Virus record (IMG/VR): IMGVR_UViG_3300027791_000009
Span: 55,870-119,869 of that record
Length of the DNA: 64,000 nt
From: a virus
Direction: 5' to 3' (one strand)
Shown here: piece by piece, positions 1-64,000 of the stretch
Numbering within the stretch: position 1 is the stretch's first letter
How the letters are laid out: the number at the start of each line of letters is the position of its first letter
Notes under the pieces: model-generated
Told to the model about the DNA's origin: nothing
The model's database searches: none
Seen by the model: the letters and a program-made list of their open reading frames with translations, nothing else
Program-made: the position numbers and the translations under genes

Positions 1-990
1 CTTACTGGAACAACTTCTGGTAATGTTCAAATTAAAGCTTCAACTCTTGGTTCTTATATCGCACAAGGCGGTAACGCTCTTGCAGGATTTGAAAATGCAA
101 CAACTTACGCTGGTGCATTTGCTGTTGATACATCAACTTACAAATCTTATTATGCAGCTAACGGAGCTTGGAACGAAATATTAGCTTCGACTTCATCTAT
201 AGACACTTTAAGTGATGTTGATACAACTACACAAGCGCCTACGAGTGGACAAGCATTAGTATGGAATGTTGGTGCAAGTGCATTTAGACCTGGTTCAATT
301 ACGACAAGTGTTGTCACAGATACAGCACCAAGTCTTGGCGGAAACCTAGATACTTCAGGATTCACAATTCAAGGAACTGGTAAATTAAGTTTAAGTGGTT
401 CTGGTTCAATTGTAAAGGCAGATTTTACTAACACTGGTGCATTACCAAATGCTTCAAATAGTGCAGGTGCTTTTGCTGTTGCAACAAGTACACTAAAAGC
501 ATACTTTGCTACTGCTTCAGGTTGGATTAACTTATTATCAGAAAATGACTCAATTGATTTACTTTCAGATGTAGACACATCAAGTAGTGCTCCTGCATAT
601 GGACAAGTATTAGTATGGACAAATGTAGGTGGTAGTGGTCAATGGAAACCTAATGATTATACTCCGGCAACTAGAGTATCAGCAAAGTTTCAGGTAACTG
701 CAAGTGGTTCAACTGATTATGTATTTAATGGTGATGGTTTTCCATCAGCACAGAATGACCCAACGCTTTATTTAAAGAAAGCACATACTTATCAATTTGA
801 AGTAAATGCTTCTGGTCACCCATTTGCTATTAGAACTGCGTCAGGTGGTTCTGCATACAGCTTTGGAGTAACCAACAATGAGTCAGCAGTTGCAACAATA
901 ACATTTACGGTGCCAATGAACGCACCTTCTACTTTATATTATCAATGTACTGCACATTCCGGTATGGGTGGAGTAATTAATATAGCATAA
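1..990 (+). CDS. 5'-truncated virion/baseplate wedge protein (gp7-like position) with C-terminal cupredoxin-like motif
   Basis: Frame 1 reads open from base 1 (LTGTTSGNVQIK...) to TAA at 988-990; it is not in the ORF track. It has repeats SIDTLSDVDT..APTSGQALVW / SIDLLSDVDT..APAYGQVLVW and ends GHPFAIR...LYYQCTAHSGMGGVINIA. It lies directly upstream of gp8. Confidence 0.7.
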   Translation, partial: LTGTTSGNVQIKASTLGSYIAQGGNALAGFENATTYAGAFAVDTSTYKSYYAANGAWNEILASTSSIDTLSDVDTTTQAPTSGQALVWNVGASAFRPGSITTSVVTDTAPSLGGNLDTSGFTIQGTGKLSLSGSGSIVKADFTNTGALPNASNSAGAFAVATSTLKAYFATASGWINLLSENDSIDLLSDVDTSSSAPAYGQVLVWTNVGGSGQWKPNDYTPATRVSAKFQVTASGSTDYVFNGDGFPSAQNDPTLYLKKAHTYQFEVNASGHPFAIRTASGGSAYSFGVTNNESAVATITFTVPMNAPSTLYYQCTAHSGMGGVINIA

Positions 991-1000
991 CAAGAAGATG

Positions 1001-1008
1001 TATAAATA
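1001..1008 (+). promoter_or_regulatory. T4-type late promoter (TATAAATA)
   Basis: Exact gp55 consensus in the intergenic gap before gp8. Confidence 0.8.
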
Positions 1009-1033
1009 TATCAAAGAACATAGGAATTAAACA

Positions 1034-2506: not shown

Positions 2507-5500
2507 ATGCCAAGTCCAACTGACTTTAACCTCTCGCCGTACTATGACGATTTCTCGGAAGATAAAGCCTTCCATAGAATATTGTTTAGACCAGCATTTG
2601 CTGTACAGGCTAGAGAACTAACACAATCGCAAACGATACTACAGAACCAAATTGAAAAGATGGGTAACCATATCTTTGAGCAAGGTGCTCAAATGATTCC
2701 TGGTGAGATTACTTACGATTTACAATACTATGCGATTAAGTTAACATCATTTACAGGTACAAGTAATCTAACAGACTTTGTTGGAATAGAAGTAACCGGT
2801 CAAACATCTGGTGTTGTTGCGAAAGTAATTAATTCAGATGTCGCAACTTCTACTGACCCTGCAACTCTTTATGTAAAATACACTAAAACAGGAACTGGAA
2901 ATCAAACACCAGACTTTGTTGCTGGCGAAACAATTTTAGGTGTACTTAATGGAAGTACAAATATTAGTGGAGTGGTTACAAGTGCTGAAACCGGTTCTGC
3001 TGCTTCAGTTGCTTCTGGTACTTACTACATTAATGGTTATGCTGTTAATGTTTCAAAACAAACAATTGTATTAGACAAGTATACAAACACACCATCTTAC
3101 AGAGTAGGTCTAACGGTTACTGATAGTATTGTAACCCCTAACTTAGATGTCTCACTTGTAGACAATGCAGCCGGTTCATCAAACGCAAATGCTCCAGGTG
3201 CTCACAGATTTAAAATAGATTTAACTTTATCTAAACTTACAACGACTTCTGTTGAAGATTCAAGCTTCATAGAGTTATTAAGATTAGAAAAAGGTACTCT
3301 CCAGAATAGAGTTAGAACAACTGAATACTCTATTTTGGAAGATACACTAGCAAGAAGAACTAGTGACGAAAGTGGCGATTACACAATCAGACCATTTGAT
3401 TTAGATATTAGAGAACATTTAGATGATACTGCTGGCAATAGAGGTATCTTTACTGCTGCCGCTGGTGGTGACGCTAACAAACTTGCATTAGGTTTATCTC
3501 CTGGTAAAGCATATGTAAAAGGTTATGAAGTTGATAAAATTGGAACAACTTTTGTTCCTGTAGAAAAACCTAGAAGTTTTGGAAATGAAAATGGTTTCAA
3601 TACTATCTTTGATGTTGGTAACTTTCTCAATGTATCAAATGCTTATAACTCTCCGGACATTAACTTTGTAACCGGTAAGACAGAAGCGTTTAAAGGATTA
3701 CAACTAAAACTTGCTAGTGAAGCATATACTGCTGGTAACATACCAACAAATGTTCAAAACAGAGTAAAAGACATCGGTCGTGCTAAATCTAAAGGTTATG
3801 AATTTAACGCAACGACAGGTGCTGGCATTTCAACTGCTTCAAACATATCTCCGTCTTCAAGTAATATATTCAAACATTATCTGTTTGATGTAGAAATGTT
3901 TAGTCATATAAAAATTCCAACAAATGTAGTATTTACAAATGGTGAAACAATCACTGGTACTACTTCAGGTGCTAACGGTATTAAAGAAAGTGTTTCAACA
4001 AATACAACTTCGGCAATCGCTACATCAACAGCTGCAAATCCAGTAGTTATCACAATGTCTGCTGATTTAGAAGTTTCTGATGGTGACGCAATTACGATAG
4101 CAGGTGTCGCAACTCAAACAGAATTAAACGACATTGTTTTCTATGTAAGACAAAAAGTTGGTGGTGTTGCAAAAAGAGAATTTGAATTGTATAACGCTGA
4201 TGATGTTGCCATTGACGGTACAGGACATACAGGTGCTGGTTCCGGTGGTACTATCACAACATCTTGTGTAGTATTATCAAGTGTACAAGGTCAATTTATA
4301 CCAGGTGAAACAATCACTGGTGGTACTTCATCTAATACTGCTGTAGTAAAAGCAAATGTATTTGGCAATCAAGGTTTCACACATTACGGTTCAAGTGATG
4401 TAAAAGAAGTTACCATGGCAGGAAGTCCAGTATATACTGCACAAGCTGATTTATCTGCAACATATGGAGAAAATAAAACACTATCTGGTAATATTTCAAT
4501 TAGTGCTTCAACTTCGGATGTAACCGGTTTCAACACACAATTTTTAACAGAATTAAAAGTAGGAGATAGTGTTCAGTTTGCAACAACGACTGGTACTATT
4601 TTAACTAGAACGGTAATTAACATTGTCAATTCATCTTCAATCAGACTTGATAGTGCAATTTCAACAACTGCCGTTTCAAACTCATTGATTATAAGAAGAA
4701 GAGGAAAATTACAAGACGCAAGTAAAAACATTTCGTTGTTCTCTTTACCTTACACAACAATTAAAACATTAAAAACAGCAAACAACTCTGGTATTTCTGA
4801 TACATCATTTATTGTAAGAAAAACATTTGTAGGTTCTTTATCTTCAACTGGTGATATTACAATTACTGCAAACACAGGCGAAACTTTTGTTGCACAACAA
4901 GAACAAGATTATTCGGTAACTATTATGTCAGCAGGTGGTTCATCTTCTGCTGGTACAGCTGGTGACAAGATATCTACAACAGGTAATAACCATGAAGGTA
5001 ATGCTTGTTTCACATTAGGTGGTTCTCCAGTAGGTCGTTCATTAACTTTAGATTTTGGTGCTAATCACTCTGACCACGAAGTAAAAATTATTGCGACTAT
5101 ATCTAAATCTGCACAAAACGAAAAATCAAAAAATTTAGTATCAAACTCGACAGCAACTATTACAACTTCAGCAGCTGCAACTGCAAATCATATTTCATTA
5201 GGTGTTGCTGACGGATATCAATTAGTATCTGTTAAAATGGCGGCTGACTTTAGTACAACACCAACTGCAAGTGATACAGACATCACAACAAGATTTACAC
5301 TTGATAGTGGACAAAGAGATAACTTCTATGATATTGCTAGACTAGTAAGAAAAGAAGGTAGCTTGGCACCAAGTGGACAATTATTAATTACATTTAATTA
5401 TTTCACACACGGTTCTGGTGACTTCTTTAGTGTAGATAGTTATTCTGGTATTATTGATTACACAGCAATACCTAGTTATACTTCTGATACTTCAGGAGAA

Positions 5501-8500
5501 ACTTATCAATTAAGAGACACATTAGACTTTAGACCTAGAGTAGATGACGCAAGTACAATTAACTCTGGTACACAAGATAGAACTTATCCTGCAACAGCTT
5601 CAATTGAAGTTGTTAAGTTTAAAACAAATGTGACCACAGACCACGAATTTTACAAAGGAAGAGTTGATAAACTATTCTTAAATAAAGAAGGTGCCTTTGA
5701 AGTACTTAAAGGTGCTGAAGCAAATGTACCACAAGAGCCAGGTTCTATTGATAACGCAATGCACCTATACACTCTTTCTTTACCACCGTACACATTGTCA
5801 CCAGATGATGTATCATACGAGACGGTAGAAAATAGAAGATATACAATGAGAGATATTGGTGCTATTGATAAGAAGATTGATAGAATTGAATATTACACTC
5901 AATTGTCTCTATTAGAAACTGCGGCTCAATCTTTACAGATACAAGACGCTGATGGTTTCGATAGATTTAAAAATGGATTTGTTGTAGACAACTTTAACGG
6001 TCACGGTATCGGTGAAGTAACCAACGGTTCATACAGATGTTCGATTGATTATGCAAAAGGCGAATTAAGACCTTTGTTTAACCAAGACGCTGTAAAACTA
6101 GAAGAGATTGACGAAGACGGTACAACATTAGTTGCTACTGACAGAGCGGCTGCAAACTATCAAAAGTCTGGTGATGTACTAACATTACCATTTACAGAAA
6201 TAGATTTAATAAATCAACCTTTTGCTTCTAAAGCAATTAATGTTAACCCATTTGCAATTTTCAGTTGGATGGGAACAATAGATTTAACACCATCAAGTGA
6301 TGAATGGAGAGAAACACAAAGAACTCCTGATTTAGTAGTTAACTCAACTACAGGTGCGTGGGACCAATTACAAAGACAAAGTGGTATTACAGACCAAGAT
6401 GAAATCTCACTTGGAACGGTATGGAATGAATGGCAAACTAACTGGACTGGAAGAGCATTAACATCTTCAACTACAGCTTCAGGTGGAAGATTTATGCGTG
6501 GTCGTGCTATTGTACAAAGAACAGAAACTACTTCTATCAACCAAGTTAACCAAAGTAGGTCAGGTATTACAACAACTGCCGTACCTCAAACGATAAGAAC
6601 ATCTATGGGAGATAGAGTTGTTAGTGTTGCATTTGTACCATTTATCAGAAGCCGTGATGTTGCATTTAAAGCTACAAGATTAAAACCAAATACAAGAGTA
6701 TTTCCATTCTTTGATAATGTAAATATTGCTACTTATTGTACACCAGACGGTGGTTCAGTTGGTGGTAACTTAATTACTGACGGTGCTGGTGCTGTTGAAG
6801 GAGTATTCACAATACCGGATCCTAAAGTAAATACAAATCCTAGATGGAGAACTGGAGAAAGAACATTTAGATTAACTTCTTCTTCTACTAACTCGCAAGA
6901 CGCAGCTGCTGTTGCTACTGCGGCTAATGCTGAATATATTGCAAGAGGATTATTAAATACCGTTAGAGACACAATTGTTTCTACAAGAGAATTTAGAGGT
7001 GTACAACAAACGGTTACAGATTCACAAACCATTTTACAAACATCTACAAGAGCAGGTACGCAAATTGTTGGTTGGGTTGATCCATTATCTCAAACATTTA
7101 TGACAGATGAACCTGGTGGAGTATTCATATCTTCTGTTGATTTATTCTTTTCAACAAAAGACGCAAACATTCCTGTAACCGTTCAAATTAGAAATACGGT
7201 TAATGGTTATCCTGGAAGTAAATTATTACCATTTGGTGAAGTTTCATTAAATCCAACTGCTGTAAATACAAGTACAGACGGTTCAGTTAAAACAACATTT
7301 ACATTCCCTGCACCAATATACATACAAGATAAAGTTGAATATGCAATGACGGTATTGTCTAACTCAAATGATTACAATATGTATGTGGGTAGATTAGGAG
7401 AAACAAATATTGGTTCTAATAGAACAATATCTAAACAACCATATGCTGGTGTTATGTTCAAATCTCAAAACGGTTCAACTTGGACTGCTGAACAAAACGA
7501 AGATATGAAATTCACAATGAAAAGATGTGAGTTTAGTAATGTCGTAGGTACGGTTCACTTAGGAAGTAAAGAACTACCGGCACAAAATATTAAACAAAAC
7601 GGATTAAGAACTACAAACGGTTCAGGTGTAATTAGAGTTTTCTATTCAAATCACAATATGCACGATACTAATTCTGTGGTTACTATATCTGGTGTTCCTT
7701 CAGGAACTCTTAACGGTATTGCTTCGACAGATATAAACGGAACATATACTTCTATTTCTAATATTACATTAGATAGTTTTGATATTACAACATCAGGAAC
7801 TGCAAATACTGATGGTGATATCGGAGGCACAACAATACTTGTTACCGGTAATAAACAATTTGATGTATTAAATCTAGGTGGTCTACAAACTATGACCGTT
7901 CCTGGTACAAACATTGAACCGTTTATTAGAACAACATCTAGTAAGTCACTTCACGGTGCTCAAACACCATATTCATTAGTTTCTGAAAGTAATAGACAAT
8001 CGGTTACATTAGTAGACGATATTTACTTTACTGCGCCACAGGCTGTTATGTCTGGACCAAATGAAACAACTAGAATGGCAGGACAAAAATCTTTCTATAC
8101 TATTATGAAATTATCAACGACAAATAATAAGTTGTCTCCAGTAATTGATTTAGATAGAAGTAGTGCTTTCTGTGTTGCAAATAGATTAAATAATCCAACT
8201 AGTGGTAATACACCTAACTATGTTCCTGAAACTACTGCAAAAGGTTCATCAACTGCGTCTCAATATATTACGAAACCGGTTACACTTATTAATAACTCAA
8301 CTGCATTAGATATTAGATTAACACAAGTTATTAGAGATACTTCTAAAGTTGAAGTTTACTTTAGAACAACAAGTGCTGATGAAGTTAGAACTATCGGAGA
8401 CATTGACTGGACACCTTTCAATGCTGGTGGTGTTGAAGATAATTCAGTTTCAAAATCTAAAGATGATTTTGATTTTAAAGAATATCAATATTCACAAGAA

Positions 8501-8608
8501 CAATTGAACGCCTTTACTGCGTTTCAGATTAAGATTGTACTAAAAGGAACTAATACTAGTTACCCACCAATCTTACGAGACATGAGAGGTATCGCATTAG
8601 CGATTTAA
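2507..8608 (+). CDS. Large virion structural protein (VrlC/DUF4815-like)
   Basis: PYYDDF..K.FHRILFRP..AVQARELTQSQTILQNQ, APGAHR, GKAYVKGYE and RFKNGFVVDNF motifs; 2033 aa following gp8. Confidence 0.8.
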   Translation: MPSPTDFNLSPYYDDFSEDKAFHRILFRPAFAVQARELTQSQTILQNQIEKMGNHIFEQGAQMIPGEITYDLQYYAIKLTSFTGTSNLTDFVGIEVTGQTSGVVAKVINSDVATSTDPATLYVKYTKTGTGNQTPDFVAGETILGVLNGSTNISGVVTSAETGSAASVASGTYYINGYAVNVSKQTIVLDKYTNTPSYRVGLTVTDSIVTPNLDVSLVDNAAGSSNANAPGAHRFKIDLTLSKLTTTSVEDSSFIELLRLEKGTLQNRVRTTEYSILEDTLARRTSDESGDYTIRPFDLDIREHLDDTAGNRGIFTAAAGGDANKLALGLSPGKAYVKGYEVDKIGTTFVPVEKPRSFGNENGFNTIFDVGNFLNVSNAYNSPDINFVTGKTEAFKGLQLKLASEAYTAGNIPTNVQNRVKDIGRAKSKGYEFNATTGAGISTASNISPSSSNIFKHYLFDVEMFSHIKIPTNVVFTNGETITGTTSGANGIKESVSTNTTSAIATSTAANPVVITMSADLEVSDGDAITIAGVATQTELNDIVFYVRQKVGGVAKREFELYNADDVAIDGTGHTGAGSGGTITTSCVVLSSVQGQFIPGETITGGTSSNTAVVKANVFGNQGFTHYGSSDVKEVTMAGSPVYTAQADLSATYGENKTLSGNISISASTSDVTGFNTQFLTELKVGDSVQFATTTGTILTRTVINIVNSSSIRLDSAISTTAVSNSLIIRRRGKLQDASKNISLFSLPYTTIKTLKTANNSGISDTSFIVRKTFVGSLSSTGDITITANTGETFVAQQEQDYSVTIMSAGGSSSAGTAGDKISTTGNNHEGNACFTLGGSPVGRSLTLDFGANHSDHEVKIIATISKSAQNEKSKNLVSNSTATITTSAAATANHISLGVADGYQLVSVKMAADFSTTPTASDTDITTRFTLDSGQRDNFYDIARLVRKEGSLAPSGQLLITFNYFTHGSGDFFSVDSYSGIIDYTAIPSYTSDTSGETYQLRDTLDFRPRVDDASTINSGTQDRTYPATASIEVVKFKTNVTTDHEFYKGRVDKLFLNKEGAFEVLKGAEANVPQEPGSIDNAMHLYTLSLPPYTLSPDDVSYETVENRRYTMRDIGAIDKKIDRIEYYTQLSLLETAAQSLQIQDADGFDRFKNGFVVDNFNGHGIGEVTNGSYRCSIDYAKGELRPLFNQDAVKLEEIDEDGTTLVATDRAAANYQKSGDVLTLPFTEIDLINQPFASKAINVNPFAIFSWMGTIDLTPSSDEWRETQRTPDLVVNSTTGAWDQLQRQSGITDQDEISLGTVWNEWQTNWTGRALTSSTTASGGRFMRGRAIVQRTETTSINQVNQSRSGITTTAVPQTIRTSMGDRVVSVAFVPFIRSRDVAFKATRLKPNTRVFPFFDNVNIATYCTPDGGSVGGNLITDGAGAVEGVFTIPDPKVNTNPRWRTGERTFRLTSSSTNSQDAAAVATAANAEYIARGLLNTVRDTIVSTREFRGVQQTVTDSQTILQTSTRAGTQIVGWVDPLSQTFMTDEPGGVFISSVDLFFSTKDANIPVTVQIRNTVNGYPGSKLLPFGEVSLNPTAVNTSTDGSVKTTFTFPAPIYIQDKVEYAMTVLSNSNDYNMYVGRLGETNIGSNRTISKQPYAGVMFKSQNGSTWTAEQNEDMKFTMKRCEFSNVVGTVHLGSKELPAQNIKQNGLRTTNGSGVIRVFYSNHNMHDTNSVVTISGVPSGTLNGIASTDINGTYTSISNITLDSFDITTSGTANTDGDIGGTTILVTGNKQFDVLNLGGLQTMTVPGTNIEPFIRTTSSKSLHGAQTPYSLVSESNRQSVTLVDDIYFTAPQAVMSGPNETTRMAGQKSFYTIMKLSTTNNKLSPVIDLDRSSAFCVANRLNNPTSGNTPNYVPETTAKGSSTASQYITKPVTLINNSTALDIRLTQVIRDTSKVEVYFRTTSADEVRTIGDIDWTPFNAGGVEDNSVSKSKDDFDFKEYQYSQEQLNAFTAFQIKIVLKGTNTSYPPILRDMRGIALAI

Positions 8609-8842: not shown

Positions 8843-10144
8843 ATGGCTGTAAGACAGGTAACAGAAACAGATAGTTTAGATAAATTACGAATAGAATTTA
8901 ACGCATTAGCGTCCTCAGATTTTGGTGATATTGCCACTCTGGATGCTACTTTATCTGCTACTTCTGTAATTGGTGCTGTTAACGAAATCAATGGTATTGC
9001 AATTGCAGCTGCTGGTTTCACATTAACAGATGGAACGAATGTACAAGGTATTGCCTCTGGTAACACATTAACCGTAGCGAGTGGTACAGGTCTTACTGCA
9101 ACGGTATCAAATCCAGATACATTAACAATCGGATTAAATACAAACTTAACTGGTCTATCAACAATTGATGTTGCAACAACAGCTGAGATTGCGAACATAC
9201 AGATTGGTACTTCTTCAATTACTTCTGCAAGTGGTACAATTGATTTTGGTAACGAACAATTAAATACAACAGGTGGTATATCTGCCGGTGGTACACTTGT
9301 TGGTGCTGGATTAACAATCAATGGTGCTTCAATGCAATTTGAAGGTGCTACTCCTAATAGTTTTGAAACTACATTACGAGTAGACGACCCATCACAAGAT
9401 AATGTAATTACACTACCTGACGCTAGTGGTACTCTTATTACTTCTGGTGATACGAATACGGTTACACAAACTATGATAGCAGATAATGCTGTAAGTACTT
9501 CACAAATTGCTGATAACTCGGTTACGATTGCAAAACTATCAGGATTTAATTCTGCAACATTAACGGTTGACACTTTAGTTGCAAATACTATTACAGGTAC
9601 TGCTTCATTATCAAGTGCTGTAGATTTAACTACTGAAAATACTCAAAACGCAACAAGATATTTAACTTTTGCTGATAGTACTTCAGGTTCAAATGTTCTA
9701 AAAGCAGATTCAGGATTATATTACAATCCATCAACAAATATTTTAACAACAACTGCTACATCAGCAAGATATGCTGACTTGGCAGAAAAGTATAAATCTG
9801 ATAGAGAATATCCAGTAGGTACCGTCTTATGTATAGGTGGCACAGCTGAGGTAACTATATGTACAGAAAATCATTGCACAAAAGTTATTGGTGTTCAATC
9901 AGAAAAACCTGCCTTTATTATGAATGGCAGTTTAGAAGGTGTTACCTCTACGGTAGCAATGACAGGAAGAGTACCAGTAAGAGTATGTGGTCCTGTAAGA
10001 AAAGGCGATATGTTAGTATCTTGTAGTATTGCAGGATGTGCTAGAGCTGAAGCAGAACCAAGAAACGGTGCATTAATTGGAAAAAGTTTAGTCAATGACG
10101 ATTCTAACGAAGAGAGAGTTATAGAAGCTGTTGTTGGTAAATAA
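8843..10144 (+). CDS. Tail fibre/whisker-like protein with C-terminal intramolecular-chaperone-like (peptidase G2-like) domain
   Basis: Thr/Ser/Gly-rich body; C-terminal RYADLAEKY...GRVPVRVCGPVRKGDMLVS. Confidence 0.6.
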   Translation: MAVRQVTETDSLDKLRIEFNALASSDFGDIATLDATLSATSVIGAVNEINGIAIAAAGFTLTDGTNVQGIASGNTLTVASGTGLTATVSNPDTLTIGLNTNLTGLSTIDVATTAEIANIQIGTSSITSASGTIDFGNEQLNTTGGISAGGTLVGAGLTINGASMQFEGATPNSFETTLRVDDPSQDNVITLPDASGTLITSGDTNTVTQTMIADNAVSTSQIADNSVTIAKLSGFNSATLTVDTLVANTITGTASLSSAVDLTTENTQNATRYLTFADSTSGSNVLKADSGLYYNPSTNILTTTATSARYADLAEKYKSDREYPVGTVLCIGGTAEVTICTENHCTKVIGVQSEKPAFIMNGSLEGVTSTVAMTGRVPVRVCGPVRKGDMLVSCSIAGCARAEAEPRNGALIGKSLVNDDSNEERVIEAVVGK

Positions 10145-10635: not shown

Positions 10636-11666
10636 TGAATTGGATGTTTTATTTAAAAACAACCGAAACCTGCAACTTGAATTGTAAACATTGTTTTACT
10701 TCAGGTTCAAATGGTCCTAAAGTCTATTGGAATCCAGATAAAACCATTAAGTGGTTACAAGATTTCAGAAAATACAATTTTCACAAACACGATACAGCAC
10801 ATTTAGAACTACACGGTGGCGAACCGTTTTTAGTTCCTGTGTCTGAAATGCAATATGTCTATGAGAACACAAAAGATTTGTGGATTCAACAATCAATGGG
10901 CATAACTTCTAACTTAACATTTAAACTAAAACAAGAACACATTGACTTCATTAAAGGTCCACTTAAAAATAGATGTGGAACTAGTTGGGATCCTAACATA
11001 AGATTTGCAAATGAGAAACAAGCAAACTTATGGCGTAAGAATGTAGAGACTTTAATTAGTGAAGGTGTTGATATTAAACTCTTCATATCAGTAACCAAAG
11101 ACACAATTAGAATTGAACCTATTGAATTACTTAAATGGGTTAAAGATTTAGGTGTAAAAGAAATGGCACTTGAAAGATTGACTGGAAATGGTAATGCAAA
11201 CTTGCATCCAGAGATATTTCCTAGAAATATAGAACAAGATAAGTGGTTTTTAAAAATGCACGAGCAATCTATTCAGTATAACACAAGAGATTGGTTTGAT
11301 AATGAGTTTTTTGAAACAATTTACTCAAAATTTGATACTGGTTCAACAAAAGAAGGCACTTTCTGCCGAGATTGTGAACAAAAACTATTTACACTTAACG
11401 CAACTGGCACAATAGGTGGTTGTCCTAATGCAGCTCCCGAGTTTAATTTTGGAACTATAGATGACCCTCTAGTAGAACTTATAAATAGTCCTAAGAGATT
11501 AGAAAATGTTGCTTGTGAAGTAGCAAGAAATCCTAAATGCTTTGAGTGTGAAGTATTTAAGTATTGTGGTGGCGATTGTCACCAATTAGCATGGCAAGAC
11601 GACATATGTGGCGCTCCTAAATCTCTTATGAAACACTTAAAAAAACAAAGTGAGGCGAAATGGTAA
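10635..11666 (+). CDS. Radical SAM/SPASM-domain enzyme #1
   Basis: CNLNCKHC (CxxxCxxC), HGGEP, C-terminal CFECEVFKYCGGDC...C. Start reassigned from 10608 to the ATG at 10635 (TAATG coupling). Confidence 0.9.
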   Translation: MNWMFYLKTTETCNLNCKHCFTSGSNGPKVYWNPDKTIKWLQDFRKYNFHKHDTAHLELHGGEPFLVPVSEMQYVYENTKDLWIQQSMGITSNLTFKLKQEHIDFIKGPLKNRCGTSWDPNIRFANEKQANLWRKNVETLISEGVDIKLFISVTKDTIRIEPIELLKWVKDLGVKEMALERLTGNGNANLHPEIFPRNIEQDKWFLKMHEQSIQYNTRDWFDNEFFETIYSKFDTGSTKEGTFCRDCEQKLFTLNATGTIGGCPNAAPEFNFGTIDDPLVELINSPKRLENVACEVARNPKCFECEVFKYCGGDCHQLAWQDDICGAPKSLMKHLKKQSEAKW

Positions 11667-49790: not shown

Positions 49791-49837
49791 TAGTTGAATA
49801 AATATATAATAAAAAGTAAACTTGTGAGGAAAATATA

Positions 49838-51355: not shown

Positions 51356-51377
51356 AAATATATAAGGAGAACATAAA

Positions 51378-51686: not shown

Positions 51687-51688
51687 AA

Positions 51689-51925: not shown

Positions 51926-51929
51926 TTAG

Positions 51930-52271
51930 ATGGCATTAAGTATTGTCTCAAAGGTAGACGATACCACTAAAGCTATTATTACGGCTAGTGGTGCGGACAA
52001 TGAAAGTGGAACATTATATTCTGCTGGTCAATCTGTATCTTTAGCGAATGTATATTATGAGATTAGAGGAACAGGCACAGCGACTCTTAAACTCGGAGAC
52101 CAATCTTTAAGTTTAACAGGGTTTGGTAATTGGGGATTAAAAGAAGGTGAAGCTCGTAAAGTAATTGAACAAGAATTAAATACGGCAACAACTTTAGAGA
52201 TTACGACAGACGCTAATGTGTCAAAATTCAATATGGCTGTAGAAGTACAGAAAGAAACGGAGACAAAATAA
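51930..52271 (+). CDS. Hypothetical protein, probable paralogue of the next gene
   Basis: LANVYYEI...LSLTGFGNW resembles IAKVWYSV...LLLSGQGHL. Confidence 0.6.
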   Translation: MALSIVSKVDDTTKAIITASGADNESGTLYSAGQSVSLANVYYEIRGTGTATLKLGDQSLSLTGFGNWGLKEGEARKVIEQELNTATTLEITTDANVSKFNMAVEVQKETETK

Positions 52272-52272
52272 A

Positions 52273-52668
52273 ATGGCAGATTTGATAACACAACAGATAA
52301 TATCGGACACGGCAGGTGTTAAGTATGTTGTAAAACAAACAAACTATTCTGATGGCACTGGTGAGACAAACACCGTGATTGCTAACCCGACAACTTCTAA
52401 CTTTATGACAGCAGATGGTACTAAAGAGATTGCGAAAGTGTGGTATTCAGTTAATACTGCAAATAGAAAATCAGCAGTAGAGATTGCTTGGGGAGGCGCT
52501 ACTGAAAACACAACATCATTATTATTATCTGGACAAGGGCATTTAGACTTTAGAACTGCGGGAAATGACATAGTAAACAATGCGACATCGCCTAACGGAT
52601 ATGTCTATTTAAGTACTAAAGACTTTGCATTAAATGACAATTATACGATTATTGTTGAATTTAGATAA
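52273..52668 (+). CDS. Hypothetical head-region protein
   Basis: GGAG RBS; 131 aa. Confidence 0.65.
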   Translation: MADLITQQIISDTAGVKYVVKQTNYSDGTGETNTVIANPTTSNFMTADGTKEIAKVWYSVNTANRKSAVEIAWGGATENTTSLLLSGQGHLDFRTAGNDIVNNATSPNGYVYLSTKDFALNDNYTIIVEFR

Positions 52669-52675
52669 TAAATAT

Positions 52676-52683
52676 TATAAATA
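52676..52683 (+). promoter_or_regulatory. T4-type late promoter
   Basis: TATAAATA before gp21. Confidence 0.8.
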
Positions 52684-52708
52684 TTAGGAAAGAGAGAGAT
52701 AAACTATT

Positions 52709-53356
52709 ATGAAATTAATTACAGAAACTTTGGAAAATGTAGAATACATCACCGAAGAAGTAAAAGGTAAAACGAATTACAAAATTCGTGGCGTATTCCT
52801 ACAATCTGAAATAAAAAACAGAAATGGTAGAGTCTATCCTAAAGAAACACTAGCAAAAGAAGTTAGTAGATATAACAGAGAATTTGTGGAACAGAAAAGA
52901 GCGTTTGGTGAATTAGGACATCCTGATGGACCAACGGTTAACTTGGAAAGAGTAAGTCATATGATTACTAAACTCTATCCAGACGGTAACAACTTTATCG
53001 GTGAAGCAAAGATAATGGATACTCCATATGGTAAGATTGTAAAAAATCTTATAGATGAAGGCGCTAAATTAGGCGTTTCTTCTCGTGGTATGGGTTCATT
53101 AGAGAGAAGTCGTGGTGGTGAAGCAAGAGTTGGAAACGACTTTTACCTTGCAACTGCAGCTGACATTGTGGCAGACCCATCTGCTCCTGACGCTTTCGTA
53201 GAAGGCATTATGGAAGGAAAAGAATGGATTTGGGACAATGGTGTAATAAAACAAAAAGATATTGAAGAATATAAAAAATACATTAAGGAAGCAAAATCAC
53301 TAAAACTTGCCGAAGCGAAAGCGTTGGTATTTAGTAAGTTCCTTAAAGGTTTGTAA
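52709..53356 (+). CDS. gp21: Prohead protease gp21
   Basis: MKLITE, NRNGRVY, GELGHP, LGVSSRGMGSL, DIVADPSAPDAFV. Confidence 0.95.
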   Translation: MKLITETLENVEYITEEVKGKTNYKIRGVFLQSEIKNRNGRVYPKETLAKEVSRYNREFVEQKRAFGELGHPDGPTVNLERVSHMITKLYPDGNNFIGEAKIMDTPYGKIVKNLIDEGAKLGVSSRGMGSLERSRGGEARVGNDFYLATAADIVADPSAPDAFVEGIMEGKEWIWDNGVIKQKDIEEYKKYIKEAKSLKLAEAKALVFSKFLKGL

Positions 53357-53359
53357 TAT

Positions 53360-53367
53360 TATAAATA
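53360..53367 (+). promoter_or_regulatory. T4-type late promoter
   Basis: TATAAATA before gp22. Confidence 0.8.
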
Positions 53368-53426
53368 TCTTATAACAAAACAAGAAAATAATTATTTTTT
53401 TTAAAAGAAATAAGGAGAACTTCAAT

Positions 53427-54590
53427 ATGGCCGAGACAGAAAAACAGGTCGCAGAAATGACGGTTCCAGACGCTCCCAAAAAGAACGCTGTAGCTGCTGA
53501 AAATTCACCACTATCTAATAGTGCTGAAGATTTAGGTGCTGCTGTAGTAAAACCTACAGATAGTAATCCAGACGCAACCAAAAAAGTTAAACTAGTTTCA
53601 GGTGACGCTCAACAGAAAAATTCTGGTAGTGCGGATCCAATGCCTTCTGTAAAGAAGGAAGAAACTGATTCTGATGGCGAGAAGATTTCCGAGGGAGATA
53701 TGCCTGACGGTCTGAAAAAATTCCTAGATAAGAAGAAAGATAAAGCAACTAATGAAGACGGCCACAAGATGAAAAAAGAATCTGAAGCTGACGACAAAGA
53801 CGCTAAATCTACTTCTAAGGAATCTACTGACCAGAAAGCGAAAGACATTGATGTAAAAGAACACATTGACGCTTTGACCTCTGGTGAATCAGACTTGTCC
53901 GAAGAATTTAAATTAAAGGCTGCTACTATTTTTGAAGCTGCAATTACTAGTAAAGTAAAAGAAATTGCTGAAGAAATGGAAGTAGACTATAATAAGAAAT
54001 TTGATGAAGAAAGTGCTAAAGCTAAATCCGAATTAGTTGAGAAGGTAGACAATTATTTGAACTATGTTGTCAACGAATGGATGAAAGAAAACGAACTTGC
54101 TATTGAAAAAGGTATCAAGGGCGAAATTGCTGAGGACTTTATTTCGGGTCTAAAAAAACTTTTTGAAGACCACTATATAGATGTACCTGATGAAAAATAT
54201 GATGTGTTAGAAGACCAAGCTTCAAAAATCGAATCGTTAGAAAATAAACTTAACGAACAGATTGCGAAGAATGTTGAACTTAACGGTAAGACAAACTTAC
54301 TTGAAAAGTCTGACATTTTAGCTGATGTTGCTTCGGATTTAACAGATGTATCGAAAGAGAAATTTGATAAACTAACTGAAGCGGTTGAATTTTCAAACGG
54401 TGAAGACTTTAGAAACAAAGTAATGACTATTAAAGAAAGTTATTTTGGAACAAAAAAAGAAGCCAACTCTGACAGCGAAATAGATAATGCGGTAGCTGAT
54501 AATAACGGTGTAGATTCTACACAAGATTTATCTAATGCAATGGCTGCTTATACTACCGCTATTAGTAAAACAAAAGACTTGAAACTTTAG
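53427..54590 (+). CDS. gp22: Prohead core scaffold gp22
   Basis: LSEEFK.KAATIFEAA, VDNYLNYVV.EW..EN, IKESYF. Confidence 0.9.
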   Translation: MAETEKQVAEMTVPDAPKKNAVAAENSPLSNSAEDLGAAVVKPTDSNPDATKKVKLVSGDAQQKNSGSADPMPSVKKEETDSDGEKISEGDMPDGLKKFLDKKKDKATNEDGHKMKKESEADDKDAKSTSKESTDQKAKDIDVKEHIDALTSGESDLSEEFKLKAATIFEAAITSKVKEIAEEMEVDYNKKFDEESAKAKSELVEKVDNYLNYVVNEWMKENELAIEKGIKGEIAEDFISGLKKLFEDHYIDVPDEKYDVLEDQASKIESLENKLNEQIAKNVELNGKTNLLEKSDILADVASDLTDVSKEKFDKLTEAVEFSNGEDFRNKVMTIKESYFGTKKEANSDSEIDNAVADNNGVDSTQDLSNAMAAYTTAISKTKDLKL

Positions 54591-54632
54591 TGTTCAAGTT
54601 AATAAAATAATAATAGGAGAGAGGAACAAGAT

Positions 54633-55964
54633 ATGTACTTATCTGAAAACTACCAAAAAAAGTGGCAGCCAGTATTAGAGCATCCAGATTTACCAAAAAT
54701 TACGGATACTTATAAACGAGCTGTTACTAGTGTTATACTTGAAAACCAAGAAAGAGCACTAAAAGAGGACGCTCAGTTTATGACTGAAACTGCGCCGACT
54801 AACTCAACTGCTGGTTCTGTAGCTAACTGGGATCCAATCCTAATTAGTCTAGTAAGACGAGCAATGCCAAACCTTATCGCTTACGATATCGCTGGCGTAC
54901 AACCAATGTCTGGTCCAACTGGACTTATCTTTGCTATGAGAAGCAGATTTAAGGCTTCAAACGGAACAGAGGCATTATTTGACGAAGCTGAATCACAATT
55001 CTCAGCTGCGAAAACTACAGCAAATGTACCTGGTTCTGCTGGAACATCATCTGCTGGAGAAACAAATCCTGCTGTACTTAACGACTCTTCACCTGGAGCA
55101 TATACTGCTGAAGGTGGAATGACTACTGCTACGGCAGAAGCATTAGGAGACACGGCTAATAATAGTTTTGCTGAAATGGCATTCTCAATTGAGAAGTCAA
55201 CGGTAACTGCTAAGTCAAGAGCTCTTAAAGCTGAGTATACAATGGAACTTGCACAAGACCTTAAAGCTATTCACGGTTTAGACGCTGAGTCTGAATTAGC
55301 GAATATTCTTTCTGCTGAAATCCTTGCTGAAATTAACAGAGAAGTTGTTAGAACTATCTATGTAAATTCAGAAAAAGGTGCTCAAACTGACACAACTACT
55401 GCTGGTATCTTTGATTTAGATACTGACTCAAACGGTAGATGGTCTGTAGAGAGATTTAAAGGACTTATGTTCCAACTAGAAAGAGACGCTAACGCTATCG
55501 CACAAAGAACAAGAAGAGGAAAAGGTAATGTTATTATCTGTTCTTCCGATGTTGCTAGTGCATTACAGATGGCTGGTGTTTTAGACTATACACCTGCATT
55601 GAACAACAACTTAGCTGTTGACGATACAGGGAACACTTTTGCTGGTGTCTTAAACGGCAGATTCAAAGTGTACATTGATCCATATAGTGCGAACGGCTCT
55701 AGCAAACAATTTTATGTTGTTGGCTACAAAGGTACTTCACCTTATGACGCTGGTATGTTCTATTGCCCTTATGTGCCATTACAAATGGTTAGAGCAGTTG
55801 GACAAGACACTTTCCAACCGAAAATCGGTTTTAAAACTAGATACGGCTTACAAGCAAATCCTTTTGCTGAAGCGGGTTCTGGTGATAATGCTGTTGTTAA
55901 CGGTTCGGGTGCTGCTAACTCAAACAGATACTACAGAAAAGTACAAATCACTAACCTTGCGTAA
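54633..55964 (+). CDS. gp23: Major capsid protein gp23
   Basis: KWQPVLEH, LVRRAMP, GVQPM.GPTGLIFAMR, SRALKAEYTMELAQDLKAIHGLDAE, FQPKIGFKTRYG. Confidence 0.97.
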   Translation: MYLSENYQKKWQPVLEHPDLPKITDTYKRAVTSVILENQERALKEDAQFMTETAPTNSTAGSVANWDPILISLVRRAMPNLIAYDIAGVQPMSGPTGLIFAMRSRFKASNGTEALFDEAESQFSAAKTTANVPGSAGTSSAGETNPAVLNDSSPGAYTAEGGMTTATAEALGDTANNSFAEMAFSIEKSTVTAKSRALKAEYTMELAQDLKAIHGLDAESELANILSAEILAEINREVVRTIYVNSEKGAQTDTTTAGIFDLDTDSNGRWSVERFKGLMFQLERDANAIAQRTRRGKGNVIICSSDVASALQMAGVLDYTPALNNNLAVDDTGNTFAGVLNGRFKVYIDPYSANGSSKQFYVVGYKGTSPYDAGMFYCPYVPLQMVRAVGQDTFQPKIGFKTRYGLQANPFAEAGSGDNAVVNGSGAANSNRYYRKVQITNLA

Positions 55965-57988: not shown

Positions 57989-58417
57989 ATGACATTAGAA
58001 GAATTACAAGAACTTTCAGATAAGAAATTAAAAATCAATGATACCGAGCTTGATATTGAAGCTCTTAAAACACCACAACTACATAATGAATTTTTGAAGC
58101 ATTACAACAAGTTTAATCTTTTACTTTCTAAAACTGAAAATGAACTAAAGATTATAAAATTACATAAATGGGAATATTACACAGGGAAAGCGGACCCAGC
58201 AGTTTATCAAACTAAACCATTCAATCTAAAACTTTTAAAGTATGATGTTGATAAGTACATTGACGCAGATGAAGATTACATAAGAATAAAGCAAAAAGTA
58301 GATTACTTGAAAACTATATGTGATTATCTGGACAAAACAATCAAACAAATATCAAATCGTGGATTCCTAATCAAGGATGCTATTGAATGGCGTAAGTTTA
58401 CTTCTGGCGCTATTTGA
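57989..58417 (+). CDS. uvsY: Recombination mediator UvsY
   Basis: EALKTPQLH, WEYYTGKA, YIDADED, I.NRGF.IKDAIEW.KF. Confidence 0.9.
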   Translation: MTLEELQELSDKKLKINDTELDIEALKTPQLHNEFLKHYNKFNLLLSKTENELKIIKLHKWEYYTGKADPAVYQTKPFNLKLLKYDVDKYIDADEDYIRIKQKVDYLKTICDYLDKTIKQISNRGFLIKDAIEWRKFTSGAI

Positions 58418-60503: not shown

Positions 60504-61133
60504 ATGATGAAAACTAAAAAAGAAAAAGTAGTTAAAGAAATTGAAACGGCCGAAGTGCCTGAAAAAAAGAAACGCATACGAACACCTGCGAAGAAGGAGC
60601 ACTATGTTAATAACAAAGAGTTTCTAATTGCAATGGTAGAGTATAAAGACAAATGTAATAAAGCAGAAGCAAGAGGCAGAAAGAAACCTCCGGTTACTAA
60701 TTACATTGGAGAATGTTTTTTAAAGATTGCAAACCATTTATCGTATAGACCTAACTTTATTAATTATACTTTTAGAGACGATATGATTTCAGATGGTATT
60801 GAGAATTGTTTACAATATCTTGGTAACTTTAATCCAGAGAAGTCAAACAATCCATTTGCATACTTTACACAAATTATCTATTATGCCTTTATAAGAAGAA
60901 TACAAAAAGAAAAGAAACAAACAACAATCAAACATAAACTTATTATGGATGCAAACTATGACGATATGACATTGCAACCTGGTGAAGATAGAGACTTTAA
61001 AAATCAATTTACAGAATTCTTACAAAAGAACTTACCAAACCAAGAACCTACAAGTGAACCTATAGAAGTAAAACCTAAAGGTGCAAAACTAAAGAGAACA
61101 AGAAAAGCAAAGATAAATTTAGAGAACTTTTAA
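60504..61133 (+). CDS. gp55: Late-transcription sigma factor gp55
   Basis: HYVNNKEFL, IANHLSYRPNFINYT, MISDGIENC, NPFAYFTQI.YYAF.RRI.KEKKQ. Confidence 0.95.
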   Translation: MMKTKKEKVVKEIETAEVPEKKKRIRTPAKKEHYVNNKEFLIAMVEYKDKCNKAEARGRKKPPVTNYIGECFLKIANHLSYRPNFINYTFRDDMISDGIENCLQYLGNFNPEKSNNPFAYFTQIIYYAFIRRIQKEKKQTTIKHKLIMDANYDDMTLQPGEDRDFKNQFTEFLQKNLPNQEPTSEPIEVKPKGAKLKRTRKAKINLENF

Positions 61134-61142
61134 AGGTATATT

Positions 61143-62204
61143 ATGAAGATAGCATTGTTGAATGACACTCACTTTGGTGCGAGAAGTGATAGTCCTGCAT
61201 TTATTAAATATTTTAACAGGTTTTATGATGAGATATTTTTTCCATATTTGGAAGAGAATAACATCACAACCTTAATACATTTAGGCGATGTAGTAGACAG
61301 AAGAAAGTTTATTAACTTTAATACTGCTCATAACTTTCAAAATAAGTTTTGGAAGAGACTATGGGAGATGAAGATTGATACACATATCATACTAGGTAAC
61401 CATGACACATACTATAAGAACACAAACTCTATTAATAGTATGCAACAACTGATTACAACTTTTGATGGTGTAAATGAACCATTTATATATGAGAAACCAA
61501 AGACGGTTGAGTTTGATGGTTTGCCTATTCTATTCGTACCTTGGATATGTCCAGAGAATGAAGAAGAAAGTCTAAAGGCAATAACAGAAAGTCAAGCACA
61601 AATATGTATGGGTCACCTAGAAGTTAAAGGTTTTGAAATGCACAAAGGACACTTCCAAGACCACGGTTTAGAAATGGACTTGTTTAAAAGATTTGAGAAA
61701 GTATATTCTGGTCACTATCATAGAAAATCAGATAATGGTACTATCTTTTATCTAGGCACACAATACGAAATTACTTGGTCTGATTATCAATGTCCTAAAG
61801 GTTTTCATGTCTTTGATACAAATACAAGAGAACTAACAAGAATTCCTAATCCTATCAGTATGTTTAAGAAGATATTATATAATGATAAAGTTAATTCATA
61901 TAGTACTATGGATATAAGTGAATATGAAAATTGTTTTATTAAAGTTATTGTAGAAGAAAAAACAGATGTCAACCAGTTTGGTGACTTTATTGATAGACTA
62001 CATAATGAGATACACACAAATGAAGTAAATGTAATTGAAGATAGTTATAATATCAATTCAACTGCTGATGTTAATATCGTAGACCAAGGAGAAGATACAT
62101 TATCTTTCTTGCAAAATTATATTAATAGTTTAGATACTAAATTAGATAAAAATAAGATGAATAGTATAGTGAAAGACTTATATAGTGAGGTGCAAGATAA
62201 GTGA
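61143..62204 (+). CDS. gp47: Recombination endonuclease subunit gp47 (Mre11-like)
   Basis: DTHFG, HLGD..DRRK, GNHD, GHLE, SGHYH. Confidence 0.95.
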   Translation: MKIALLNDTHFGARSDSPAFIKYFNRFYDEIFFPYLEENNITTLIHLGDVVDRRKFINFNTAHNFQNKFWKRLWEMKIDTHIILGNHDTYYKNTNSINSMQQLITTFDGVNEPFIYEKPKTVEFDGLPILFVPWICPENEEESLKAITESQAQICMGHLEVKGFEMHKGHFQDHGLEMDLFKRFEKVYSGHYHRKSDNGTIFYLGTQYEITWSDYQCPKGFHVFDTNTRELTRIPNPISMFKKILYNDKVNSYSTMDISEYENCFIKVIVEEKTDVNQFGDFIDRLHNEIHTNEVNVIEDSYNINSTADVNIVDQGEDTLSFLQNYINSLDTKLDKNKMNSIVKDLYSEVQDK

Positions 62205-63916
62205 TAATATTTCATAACATAACCTGGAAGAACTTTCTTTCTACAGGCAATACACCAATCAGCGTAAATTTAAACGAATCACCTACGACATTAATCATAG
62301 GTACTAATGGTTCAGGTAAATCAACTTTACTTGACGCTTTATGCTTTGCATTGTTTAACAAACCTTTTAGAATTATTAAGAAAGACCAGATGGTTAATAC
62401 AATCAACAATGCTGATACCGTTGTTGAAGTTTACTTTAGTATTGGTCCAAAGAAATACAAGATACGAAGAGGTATTAAACCTAACATATTTGAAATATTC
62501 CAAGACGGTATTTTATTAAATCAGGATGCTTCTTCTATAGATTATCAAAAGTACCTTGAACAAAACATAATGAAACTTAATTATAGGTCATTTTGTCAAG
62601 TTGTAATTTTAGGTTCTTCTTCTTATGAACCATTTATGAAGATGAGAGCAAGTTATCGTAGAGATGTAATTGAAGAGATACTAGACATTAAAGTATTTGC
62701 AAGTATGAACTTATTGTTAAGAAGTAAACAACAAGACTTAACAAAAGACATTACCACAATGAGACACCAGGTAGACTTGATTGATAACAAAGTTAATCTA
62801 CAAGAGAAACATTACGAAGAATTACAAGGTAGAGATACAGACGCTATCACTAGAAAAAAAGAAGACATAGAGAAAGCACAACAAGGTAAAAGAGATTATA
62901 TGGTCCGTATCAATAGTCTCAATAACGAAATTGAAACAAACAAATTAAAATTACAAAACAAAGATAAGACTAAAAGTAAGTTTCTTCAATTGCAGAAGTT
63001 AGAATCCAAGATTGATACTAATTTAAAGACACATAAAAGAACATTAAAATTCTTTGAAGAGAATACTAATTGTCCAACTTGTACACAAGAACTTGAACCT
63101 AGTTTCAAACAAGAGAAAATCAATGAAGAGAAGGCTGCTGTAGATAAATTGAATAATGGTTATAAAGAACTATTGACTGAAATCACTAATACAGAAGAGA
63201 AGATACTAACCATTGATAAGGTATCAGAAACTATTAGAACTATAGAAACAAATGTTTCAAAACTTAATCATAGTGTTGATGAGATTAAAAGACATAGTGA
63301 TAGAATACAAGATGAGATTGAACTCCTACAAGTAGAGGATGCTTCAGGCCTAAATATCAAAGAAGAGATATTGAAGTTGAAACAAGACCTAGTTAAGACA
63401 ATGGGAGAACGAGACGAAGTTATTGAAGAGAAAAAATACATTGATGTATTAAGACAGATTGTAGACGATAGTGGTGCAAGAGCACAAATTATTAAGAAGT
63501 ATATTCCAGTAATGAATACACTTATCAATCAGTATCTACAATCAATGGACTTCTTTATATCTTTTCATTTAGACGAAGAGTTTAAAGAAACGGTTAAGAG
63601 TAGACATATGGATTCTTTTAACTATAACAATTTTAGTGAAGGTGAGAAGATGAGAATAGATTTATCATTACTATTCACTTGGAGAAGTATTGCGAAGATG
63701 AAGAACTCCGTCAATACTAATTTATTAATACTTGATGAGATATTTGATAGTAGTTTAGATGGTCAAGGAACAGACGACTTCTTTAAGATTATTGCTCAAC
63801 TTTCAAAAGAAAATGTCTTTATCATATCACACAAAGGAGATATTATGTTTGACAAGTTTACTAATATATTAAAATTTGAGAAGTATCAAAACTTTACGAG
63901 GTTAGAAAATGCCTAA
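62201..63916 (+). CDS. gp46: Recombination endonuclease subunit gp46 (Rad50-like)
   Basis: KNFLSTGN, GTNGSGKST, CPTC hook, FSEGEKMRID, LILDEIFDSSLD, ISH; GTG start. Confidence 0.95.
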   Translation: MIIFHNITWKNFLSTGNTPISVNLNESPTTLIIGTNGSGKSTLLDALCFALFNKPFRIIKKDQMVNTINNADTVVEVYFSIGPKKYKIRRGIKPNIFEIFQDGILLNQDASSIDYQKYLEQNIMKLNYRSFCQVVILGSSSYEPFMKMRASYRRDVIEEILDIKVFASMNLLLRSKQQDLTKDITTMRHQVDLIDNKVNLQEKHYEELQGRDTDAITRKKEDIEKAQQGKRDYMVRINSLNNEIETNKLKLQNKDKTKSKFLQLQKLESKIDTNLKTHKRTLKFFEENTNCPTCTQELEPSFKQEKINEEKAAVDKLNNGYKELLTEITNTEEKILTIDKVSETIRTIETNVSKLNHSVDEIKRHSDRIQDEIELLQVEDASGLNIKEEILKLKQDLVKTMGERDEVIEEKKYIDVLRQIVDDSGARAQIIKKYIPVMNTLINQYLQSMDFFISFHLDEEFKETVKSRHMDSFNYNNFSEGEKMRIDLSLLFTWRSIAKMKNSVNTNLLILDEIFDSSLDGQGTDDFFKIIAQLSKENVFIISHKGDIMFDKFTNILKFEKYQNFTRLENA

Positions 63917-64000
63917 AAATTTAGACGAGAAAAGAATGTCTGTTTATGAAGAAGAGAAATTTAAAGAGGACATGATGAGACAGGCAGAAGAGAAAATAAA
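63909..64000 (+). CDS. 3'-truncated ORF (MPKNLDEKRMSVYEEEKF...)
   Basis: ATG overlapping the gp46 end; open to the window edge. Confidence 0.45.
   Translation, partial: MPKNLDEKRMSVYEEEKFKEDMMRQAEEKI

Follow-up and report, generated by a model that had tools for sequence, protein, structure and literature searches.

Restriction-site avoidance in phage genomes, of which the GATC-free staphylococcal myoviruses are an example, removes short, mostly palindromic words via synonymous codons, and the purged set differs among close relatives. Restriction sites are also blocked where they overlap Dam or Dcm methylation sites, the mark on one motif protecting a different, overlapping motif. Chlorella-virus methyltransferases, which have short target sites, represent a further mode, in which a single enzyme of short or degenerate specificity guards against many restriction enzymes. 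The same mode is seen in Mom of phage Mu, a broad-spectrum DNA modification with a degenerate short target (PMC3299994, in part). Here we describe a 64,000-nt window of viral DNA (positions 55,870 to 119,869 of the IMG/VR virus record IMGVR_UViG_3300027791_000009, which form the 3'-terminal 64 kb of this 119,869-bp record, classed as linear) from a T4-like marine myovirus in which at least a dozen short motifs of restriction type, GATC and GATGC/GCATC among them, have been purged from both strands, almost entirely via synonymous codons, except where they overlap one short sequence context.

The purge resembles the avoidance described in other phages in the kind of word removed, in its synonymous route and in its variation among close relatives, but differs in having exact context-dependent holes that obey one short rule; no description of such holes was found in the literature searched. 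As in Dam/Dcm overlap blocking, a mark on one motif would protect a different motif; unlike that case, the evidence is an evolutionary footprint over a genome and a clade, from whose sequence both the writer and the mark are deduced. Mom modifies adenine, whereas the target proposed here would be a C in 5'-W-C-C-3' (W, A or T), with a protection that would be partial, so that the sites are also purged. Among marine viruses, Hiraoka et al. (2022) reported that the number of methyltransferase genes in Myoviridae-like viral metagenome-assembled genomes (MAGs) ranges from 0 to 6 and averages 2.2, that N4-methylcytosine (m4C) is the commonest type predicted for the methyltransferases of viral MAGs, and that the viral m4C motifs, RGCY, CCWGG, GGWCC, CCNGG and GGHCC, are rich in CC/GG (PMC8919816, in part). 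The phage described here would resemble these self-methylating viruses; unlike in our case, neither a WCC motif nor a tie to site avoidance was found in those parts of PMC8919816, its supplementary per-genome tables aside. Seong et al. (2022) found GANTC to be depleted in some pelagiphages and SAR11 genomes to have previously been without reported restriction-modification systems (PMC9516812, in part).

Expected counts came from shuffles in which synonymous codons change places and each protein stays the same (300 for the whole contig, 200 for the window); below, 'x vs y' gives the observed count vs the shuffle mean unless a composition-based expectation is named. Over the whole contig (G000; completeness 82%, CheckV estimate), HGATCD (H, any base but G; D, any base but C) was absent (0 vs 166.7), GGATCD was nearly so (2 vs 56.0), HGATCC was reduced (13 vs 49.1) and GGATCC was in excess (18 vs 10.2). 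HGATGC (0 vs 80.5) and GCATCD (0 vs 58.9) were likewise missing, and GGATGC (13 vs 9.9) and GCATCC (8 vs 5.7) were retained. The window gave HGATCD 0 vs 86.4, GGATCD 0 vs 33.9, HGATCC 9 vs 24.3 and GGATCC 8 vs 4.3, together with HGATGC 0 vs 52.6, GGATGC 7 vs 5.5, GCATCD 0 vs 33.1 and GCATCC 3 vs 2.2. The pattern is far beyond chance. It confirms what the first-pass annotation had noticed by eye in the window, namely that every GATC is GATCC (17/17, eight of them GGATCC), every GATGC is GGATGC (7/7) and every GCATC is GCATCC (3/3); all coordinates given there are correct, and two further GGATGC sites, at 60947 and 63337, were absent from its list (Table 1). The same was true of all 13 GATGC and all 8 GCATC in the contig, and its 33 GATC comprise 18 GGATCC, 13 HGATCC, 2 GGATCD and no HGATCD.

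The depletion is achieved by synonymous recoding. Asp-Ala was spelled with GAT 12 times and with GAC 3 times after a G-ending codon, and 0 and 112 times, respectively, after other codons. Asp was GAC in 134/134 cases before His, Gln, Leu(CTN) and Arg(CGN), and GCA was used in 0/102 Ala-Ser(TCN) pairs, so that the codon choices pointed out in the first-pass annotation (GAC for Asp before Ala or Gln, and GCT, GCG or GCC for Ala before Ser) hold as well. Asp-Val was GAT-encoded in 149/149 cases in the whole contig, and Ile was never ATC after a G-ending codon (0/401). These motifs fall far below the protein- and codon-preserving expectation, which marks the pattern as restriction-site avoidance. 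Many other words were purged from the whole contig: ACGT (0 vs 233), CGCG (0 vs 32), ACWGT (ACAGT/ACTGT, 0 vs 200), CGWCG (3 vs 50), ATCGAT (0 vs 24), TCTAGA (0 vs 40), RCATGY (0 vs about 45), ATGCAT (1 vs 31), TTCGAA (1 vs 29) and CTTAAG (1 vs 20), and TCATGA and TGCGCA too. As a separate observation, CCC/GGG was the most depleted trinucleotide in the whole contig (0.70).

An unbiased scan compared all minimal purged 4- to 6-mers with 100 codon-preserving shuffles, without preselection of motifs. All eight purged words ending in A/T-C (GCATC, CATCTC, five NGTWAC words and GATC) were spared if the next base was C, seven of them with an observed/expected ratio of at least 0.5, and none was purged with the added C; for GATC the ratio was 51/127 (0.40) before C vs 15/442 (0.03) for the other three flanks. 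Apart from CACTG|G, CTNAG|C and two weak cases, no other kind of flank exemption emerged. ACNGT and TCNNGA followed the same rule at their N positions. ACNGT was purged for N = A/T (0 vs 200) and spared as ACCGT (62 vs 26) and ACGGT (249 vs 145). TCNNGA divided cleanly by its inner dinucleotide: the nine in which position 3 is not C and position 4 is not G were purged (e.g., TCAAGA/TCTTGA 2 vs 91), and the seven that have at least one of these bases there were at expectation. The base 5' of TCC in TCCNGA was unconstrained (A 50, T 35, C 26, G 20). GATGC followed by C, a GCC context, was not spared, every GATGC carrying a 5' G. The common element is therefore about 5'-W-C-C-3' with its first C inside the restriction motif. 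WCC/GGW occurs at 5,355 sites in the contig, about 1 per 22 bp and roughly at the expected frequency, and no extra flank specificity was seen around GGATC/GGATGC in 155, 190, 62 and 29 pooled sites. The proposal of the first-pass annotation that two motifs are purged except within GGAT/ATCC thus stands as regards the purge and the sparing by flanks, and the real context is wider.

We consider it probable that the phage combines two defences, the purge of restriction sites and a DNA modification at approximately WCC, likely on the first C, written most likely by an N4-cytosine-type methyltransferase of its own (candidate B, described below). The phage DNA would be modified at 5'-W-C-C-3' (ATCC, TCC and ACC, with GGW on the complementary strand). 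Where the C of WCC lies inside a restriction motif, the site would already be protected and selection would leave it in place; sites would survive as GATCC/GGATCC, GCATCC (= GGATGC), GTWACC, CATCTCC, ACCGT/ACGGT and TCCNGA/TCNGGA because this C shields them.

The first-pass annotation had left the shielded base as either the A of GGAT or a C of TCC/CC. GGT/ACC contexts are spared alongside GGA/TCC, so the A of GGAT is not the general shielded base, and C (or its paired G) is more likely. Adenine methylation at GGAT-type sites (GGATC, GGATG), as by the methyltransferases of asymmetric-site systems, might still block the overlapping GATC and GATGC: GGAT is common to GGATC and GGATGC, the A lies inside both purged motifs, and the N6-methyladenine motifs GATCC, GATGG and SATC are among the new methylated marine motifs (PMC8919816, in part). 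One methyltransferase-like gene of a strain-level relative (A, Table 1) has small adenine methyltransferases (5hek, 1g60) as its nearest PDB entries; its product contains FAGSG but no match to (D/N/S)PP(Y/F/W/H), that is, it is without the canonical motif IV. However, methylation of this A would leave unexplained the sparing of GGT/ACC contexts (GTWACC, ACCGT/ACGGT) and that of TCCNGA with its unconstrained 5' base, and GGACGT is absent despite its GGA, as the zero count of ACGT in the whole contig requires. We therefore give adenine methylation little probability.

Not all of the pattern in GATC needs a modification. The leftover sites might be unprotected and simply sit where removing the motif would give rise to a different disfavoured word, CCC for instance. 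GAT-CCN in frame (Asp-Pro) accounts for 25/33 GATC in the contig and for 12/13 HGATCC, and CAT-CCN accounts for 7/8 GCATCC. C-ending codons are generally avoided before Pro (C-ending fractions: Asn-Pro 0.18 vs 0.41; Tyr-Pro 0.07 vs 0.34; four-fold families 0-0.04 vs 0.03-0.17). Since GATC is palindromic, no mechanism acting on the duplex could favour HGATCC (13) over GGATCD (2); this strand asymmetry is a codon effect, because GAC-CCN makes the disfavoured CCC, and the absence of GGATCD from the window is part of it. The impression that only GATCC occurs on the plus strand is thus partly a codon effect. In this genome a G on the 5' side is by itself not enough to spare GATC (GGATCD 2 vs 56), contrary to the exemption by GGAT claimed in the first-pass annotation; only the two-sided GGATCC is fully spared.

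As a complete explanation, this codon-level conflict is largely refuted already, and we find it scarcely credible. The CCC conflict accounts for the HGATCC/GGATCD asymmetry only. Between a G-ending codon and a C-starting codon for His, Gln, Leu or Arg, Asp was GAT in 0/12 cases. GGATGC is G|GAT|GCN in 12/13 cases, where no codon conflict exists, GAC-GCN being free and used 112 times. Asp-Pro itself is spelled with GAC 56 times and with GAT 26 times, and the rare G-ending codons are enriched before GAT-CC (14/26) relative to GAC-CC (only 2/56). GTWACC, ACCGT and TCCNGA are without any such conflict. Two related candidates were rejected: GGWCC is not avoided, so that its avoidance cannot force GGATCC (GGACC 38 vs 31, GGTCC 35 vs 37.5), nor is GGAC generally avoided after G (GAT : GAC = 83 : 55). 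Under the two-way defence, GATC would be fully safe in this lineage only with the context on both strands (GGATCC), and one-sided GATCC would persist mainly at Asp-Pro, since GAC-CCN makes the disfavoured CCC.

The exemption rule recurs in relatives with different companion purges. We fetched 80 loci around homologues of the large terminase (TerL) from viral contigs (L004-L083). HGATCD was purged in 39 of them and not purged in 41; among the 39, 25 retain GGATC contexts at no less than 0.3 of expectation, 6 retain fewer, and 8 lack GATC entirely. As GATC is purged whatever its flanks in these 8/80 loci, GATC enzymes do not in general spare such sites. The contigs of the totally GATC-purging lineages end short of the methyltransferase region. 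Non-redundant sequence was pooled and compared with composition-based expectations. A close clade (367 kb) showed HGATCD 2 vs ~790, GGATCC 47 vs 32, HGATGC 2 vs 320 and GGATGC 63 vs 65. A second clade (210 kb), which tolerates ACGT, showed HGATCD 0 vs ~430, HGATGC 4 vs 159 and GGATGC 29 vs 29, with one-sided GGATC at 148 vs 159, which suggests that a single shielded strand suffices there.

These comparisons also bear on the possibility that no modification exists and that the restriction enzymes simply fail to cut the flanked sites, the true targets being HGATCD, GCATCD and so on. For any single motif, the same counts would be expected. Nevertheless, the identical rule 'not followed by C' would have to hold for six or more unrelated motifs, relatives under GATC pressure (L039-L041, L050, L071, L082 and L113, all without GATC) purge the GGATC contexts too, and the one-sided sites at expectation in the second clade would need a palindromic enzyme that requires non-G flanks on both sides. 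We regard this possibility as very improbable.

The purges change fast, and the purged set varies among related phages, as host restriction repertoires do. Alignment of G000:57276-111932 with G001:4849-59549 (54.7 kb, 93.8% identity) showed 30 CATG here vs none in G001, and 21 TCGA here vs 1; half of the 30 CATG sites (15) read CGTG in G001, ATG being replaced by GTG. Two further features of the relatives were recorded: CGCG was absent in 80/80 TerL loci, whatever else was purged, and GATGC/GCATC reached 2 to 3 times the composition expectation in some (L050 40 vs 13, L082 26 vs 8, L042 33 vs 11).

The search for a writer gave a divided result: no methyltransferase gene was found in the 119,869-bp contig, and three methyltransferase-like genes (A, B and D; Table 1) were found in an overlapping one. 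This contig, G006 (37,179 bp), overlaps the last 8,963 bp of the record at 99.5% identity and extends 28 kb further. G004 (93.5% identical) and G003 (about 72%) likewise run past the contig end, and G003, G004 and G008 each carry two or three methyltransferase-like genes. B and D align at an invariant D-x-S-x-G-x-G stretch, and both have TSPPY, the SPPY variant being presumably typical of N4-cytosine enzymes. Among the matches of B to named ESM Atlas clusters, 27/30 were auto-named cytosine-N4 DNA methyltransferase, with scores of 0.98-0.99 among the matches listed. Homologues of B are numerous in marine metagenomes, all unnamed or 'hypothetical', and the cultured pelagimyophages had no match to B at E<1e-5. 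All 44 loci of the B search with B at 72% identity or more have no HGATCD. Locus L113, with D-like and A-like genes and no B, has no GATC in any context (0 vs 58 expected), which points to B rather than D. We suggest, more tentatively, that B represents an uncharacterised viral methyltransferase family, with a new N-terminal domain, TSPPY and hundreds of unnamed marine homologues, that may write m4C on WCC. Some other leads were rejected or came back negative. The sole NPPY-bearing open reading frame (ORF) of the contig is a DUF6433 protein, not a methyltransferase; a specificity switch of B in relatives without the exemption was uninformative, the divergence being even along the protein and not in one domain; and PF00303 (thymidylate-synthase-like) and PF01702 (TGT/DpdA), sought as markers of base hypermodification through hydroxymethyl-pyrimidine or 7-deazaguanine, had no match in G000, G006, G004 or G008, all incomplete records.

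A host enzyme could leave the same trace. If a methyltransferase of all host strains marked GGATC/WCC-type sites, so that phages of each generation emerged already protected there, and variable host restriction purged the unshielded ones, the sequence footprint would be identical to that of a phage enzyme; a GATCC methylation motif occurs in a marine gammaproteobacterial MAG (PMC8919816, in part), and the 120-kb contig is without a methyltransferase gene. We nevertheless consider a host-written shield unlikely, as G006, a strain-level relative, and G003, G004 and G008 all encode two or three methyltransferase-like genes.

Several points weigh against a phage-encoded modification of WCC by B. 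The contig had no match to the DNA methyltransferase families PF01555 (N6/N4 DNA methylase), PF02086, PF00145, PF05869 or PF02384. The PF01555 scores of the B and D orthologues (21.9 and 24.2 bits) are below the cut-off of 26.7 and cover the first ~68 profile positions only, B has no PDB relative by sequence or profile search, and its AlphaFold model (pLDDT 75.7) matches generic S-adenosylmethionine-dependent methyltransferase folds only, the best being Trm11 at a TM score of 0.36; for these reasons B remains a putative DNA-acting enzyme. Locus L161, whose B is 66% identical, has 1 GATC vs 31 expected (~9 in GGATC contexts, a rough estimate), and, all loci being related to one another, phylogeny confounds the association of B with the exemption. 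As for the context, in the whole contig and pooled relatives the CASTG sites that remain are CCAGTG/CACTGG (16 vs 24, against 3 vs 88), mostly after A/T, and in CCAGTG the first C of WCC sits one base outside the motif, which does not fit the simple rule. Nor does CTNAG, which is spared by a 5' G (GCTNAG), an exemption that might reflect a second methyltransferase. One-sided GGATCD is purged, yet a one-sided context is enough for GTWAC, TCNNGA and ACNGT. A specificity of 3 bp is unusual, and the putative modification is deduced from assembled contigs.

ORFs of the window and the contig lie nearly all on the plus strand. Pfam matches in the window include a T4-type large terminase, a tail sheath and proteins with RCC1 repeats and CBM5/12 modules, and those upstream of the window include T4 gp32, gp59, RNase H, a baseplate protein and ribonucleotide reductase; psbA was not found. 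The terminase shares 72.9% identity with its counterpart in Pelagibacter phage Mosig and ~63% with those of Methylophilales phage Melnitz and cyanomyoviruses. Very large putative tail/fibre proteins are encoded at 2507-8608 and 24548-38315 of the window; the sizes of such proteins are 2033 aa (DUF4815), 1238 aa (four CBM5/12 modules) and 1072, 1367 and 731 aa (RCC1-like repeats). The region beyond the contig, as seen in G006, carries tRNA-Leu(TAA) and tRNA-Arg(TCT) (L172:14541-14713) and genes for T4-type gp45, gp44, DNA polymerase, UvsX-like and gp41-like proteins, peptide deformylase and a RimK-like ATP-grasp protein. The phage is widespread: at least 88% of the sampled words of positions 45001-55000 of the window were present in 16 marine/seawater metagenome runs, which belong to no fewer than 7 studies (2016-2024).

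Table 1. Surviving GATC, GATGC and GCATC sites in the window (window coordinates) and methyltransferase-like genes in the overlapping contig G006 (G006 coordinates)
Feature	Position	Strand	Remarks
Whole window	1-64000		T4-like marine myovirus; short motifs purged throughout via synonymous recoding; methyltransferase-free; candidate genes 3.3-22 kb past window end in G006
GGATCC	6817-6822		GATC at 6818; in-frame GAT-CCT (Asp-Pro)
TGATCC	7078-7083	+	GATC at 7079; GAT-CCA (Asp-Pro)
GGATCC	10988-10993		GATC at 10989; GAT-CCT (Asp-Pro)
GGATCC	13984-13989		GATC at 13985; GAT-CCT (Asp-Pro)
GGATCC	15403-15408		GATC at 15404; outside gene calls
TGATCC	20758-20763	+	GATC at 20759; GAT-CCA (Asp-Pro)
GGATCC	23020-23025		GATC at 23021; GAT-CCA (Asp-Pro)
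TGATCC	24353-24358	+	GATC at 24354; GAT-CCG (Asp-Pro)
TGATCC	25690-25695	+	GATC at 25691; GAT-CCT (Asp-Pro)
GGATCC	26588-26593		GATC at 26589; frame GGA-TCC (Gly-Ser)
AGATCC	32327-32332	+	GATC at 32328; GAT-CCT (Asp-Pro)
AGATCC	50101-50106	+	GATC at 50102; GAT-CCA (Asp-Pro)
TGATCC	50314-50319	+	GATC at 50315; GAT-CCT (Asp-Pro)
CGATCC	51584-51589	+	GATC at 51585; GAT-CCG (Asp-Pro)
GGATCC	53633-53638		GATC at 53634; GAT-CCA (Asp-Pro)
GGATCC	54830-54835		GATC at 54831; GAT-CCA (Asp-Pro)
TGATCC	55676-55681	+	GATC at 55677; GAT-CCA (Asp-Pro)
GGATGC	8941-8946	+	CTG-GAT-GCT (Leu-Asp-Ala)
GGATGC	21050-21055	+	TTG-GAT-GCT
GGATGC	47761-47766	+	CAG-GAT-GCG
GGATGC	58375-58380	+	AAG-GAT-GCT
GGATGC	60947-60952	+	ATG-GAT-GCA; not in first-pass annotation
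GGATGC	62524-62529	+	CAG-GAT-GCT
GGATGC	63337-63342	+	GAG-GAT-GCT; not in first-pass annotation
GCATCC	11204-11209	+	TTG-CAT-CCA (Leu-His-Pro)
GCATCC	47146-47151	+	TGG-CAT-CCC (Trp-His-Pro)
GCATCC	54680-54685	+	GAG-CAT-CCA (Glu-His-Pro)
Methyltransferase-like A	G006 12215-12910		231 aa; orthologue matches PF01555 at 71.7 bits, E = 1e-19 (cut-off 26.7)
Methyltransferase-like B	G006 13700-14848		382 aa; TSPPY; ~4.7 kb past contig end
Methyltransferase-like D	G006 29886-31118		410 aa; TSPPY

If the exemption is the footprint of a methylation, the methylated motif of a phage could be inferred from its sequence alone, and viral methylomes could be deduced from metagenomes by way of the holes in site avoidance. 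A concrete prediction that is cheap to test, m4C at WCC, would follow for an abundant clade of uncultured marine phages. Purging and shielding would then be used together, trading off site by site, and the WCC mark would shield a marine T4-like clade of global distribution broadly against restriction. The strong, lineage-specific purges imply a heavy and fast-changing restriction pressure on phages whose cultured relatives infect streamlined bacteria.

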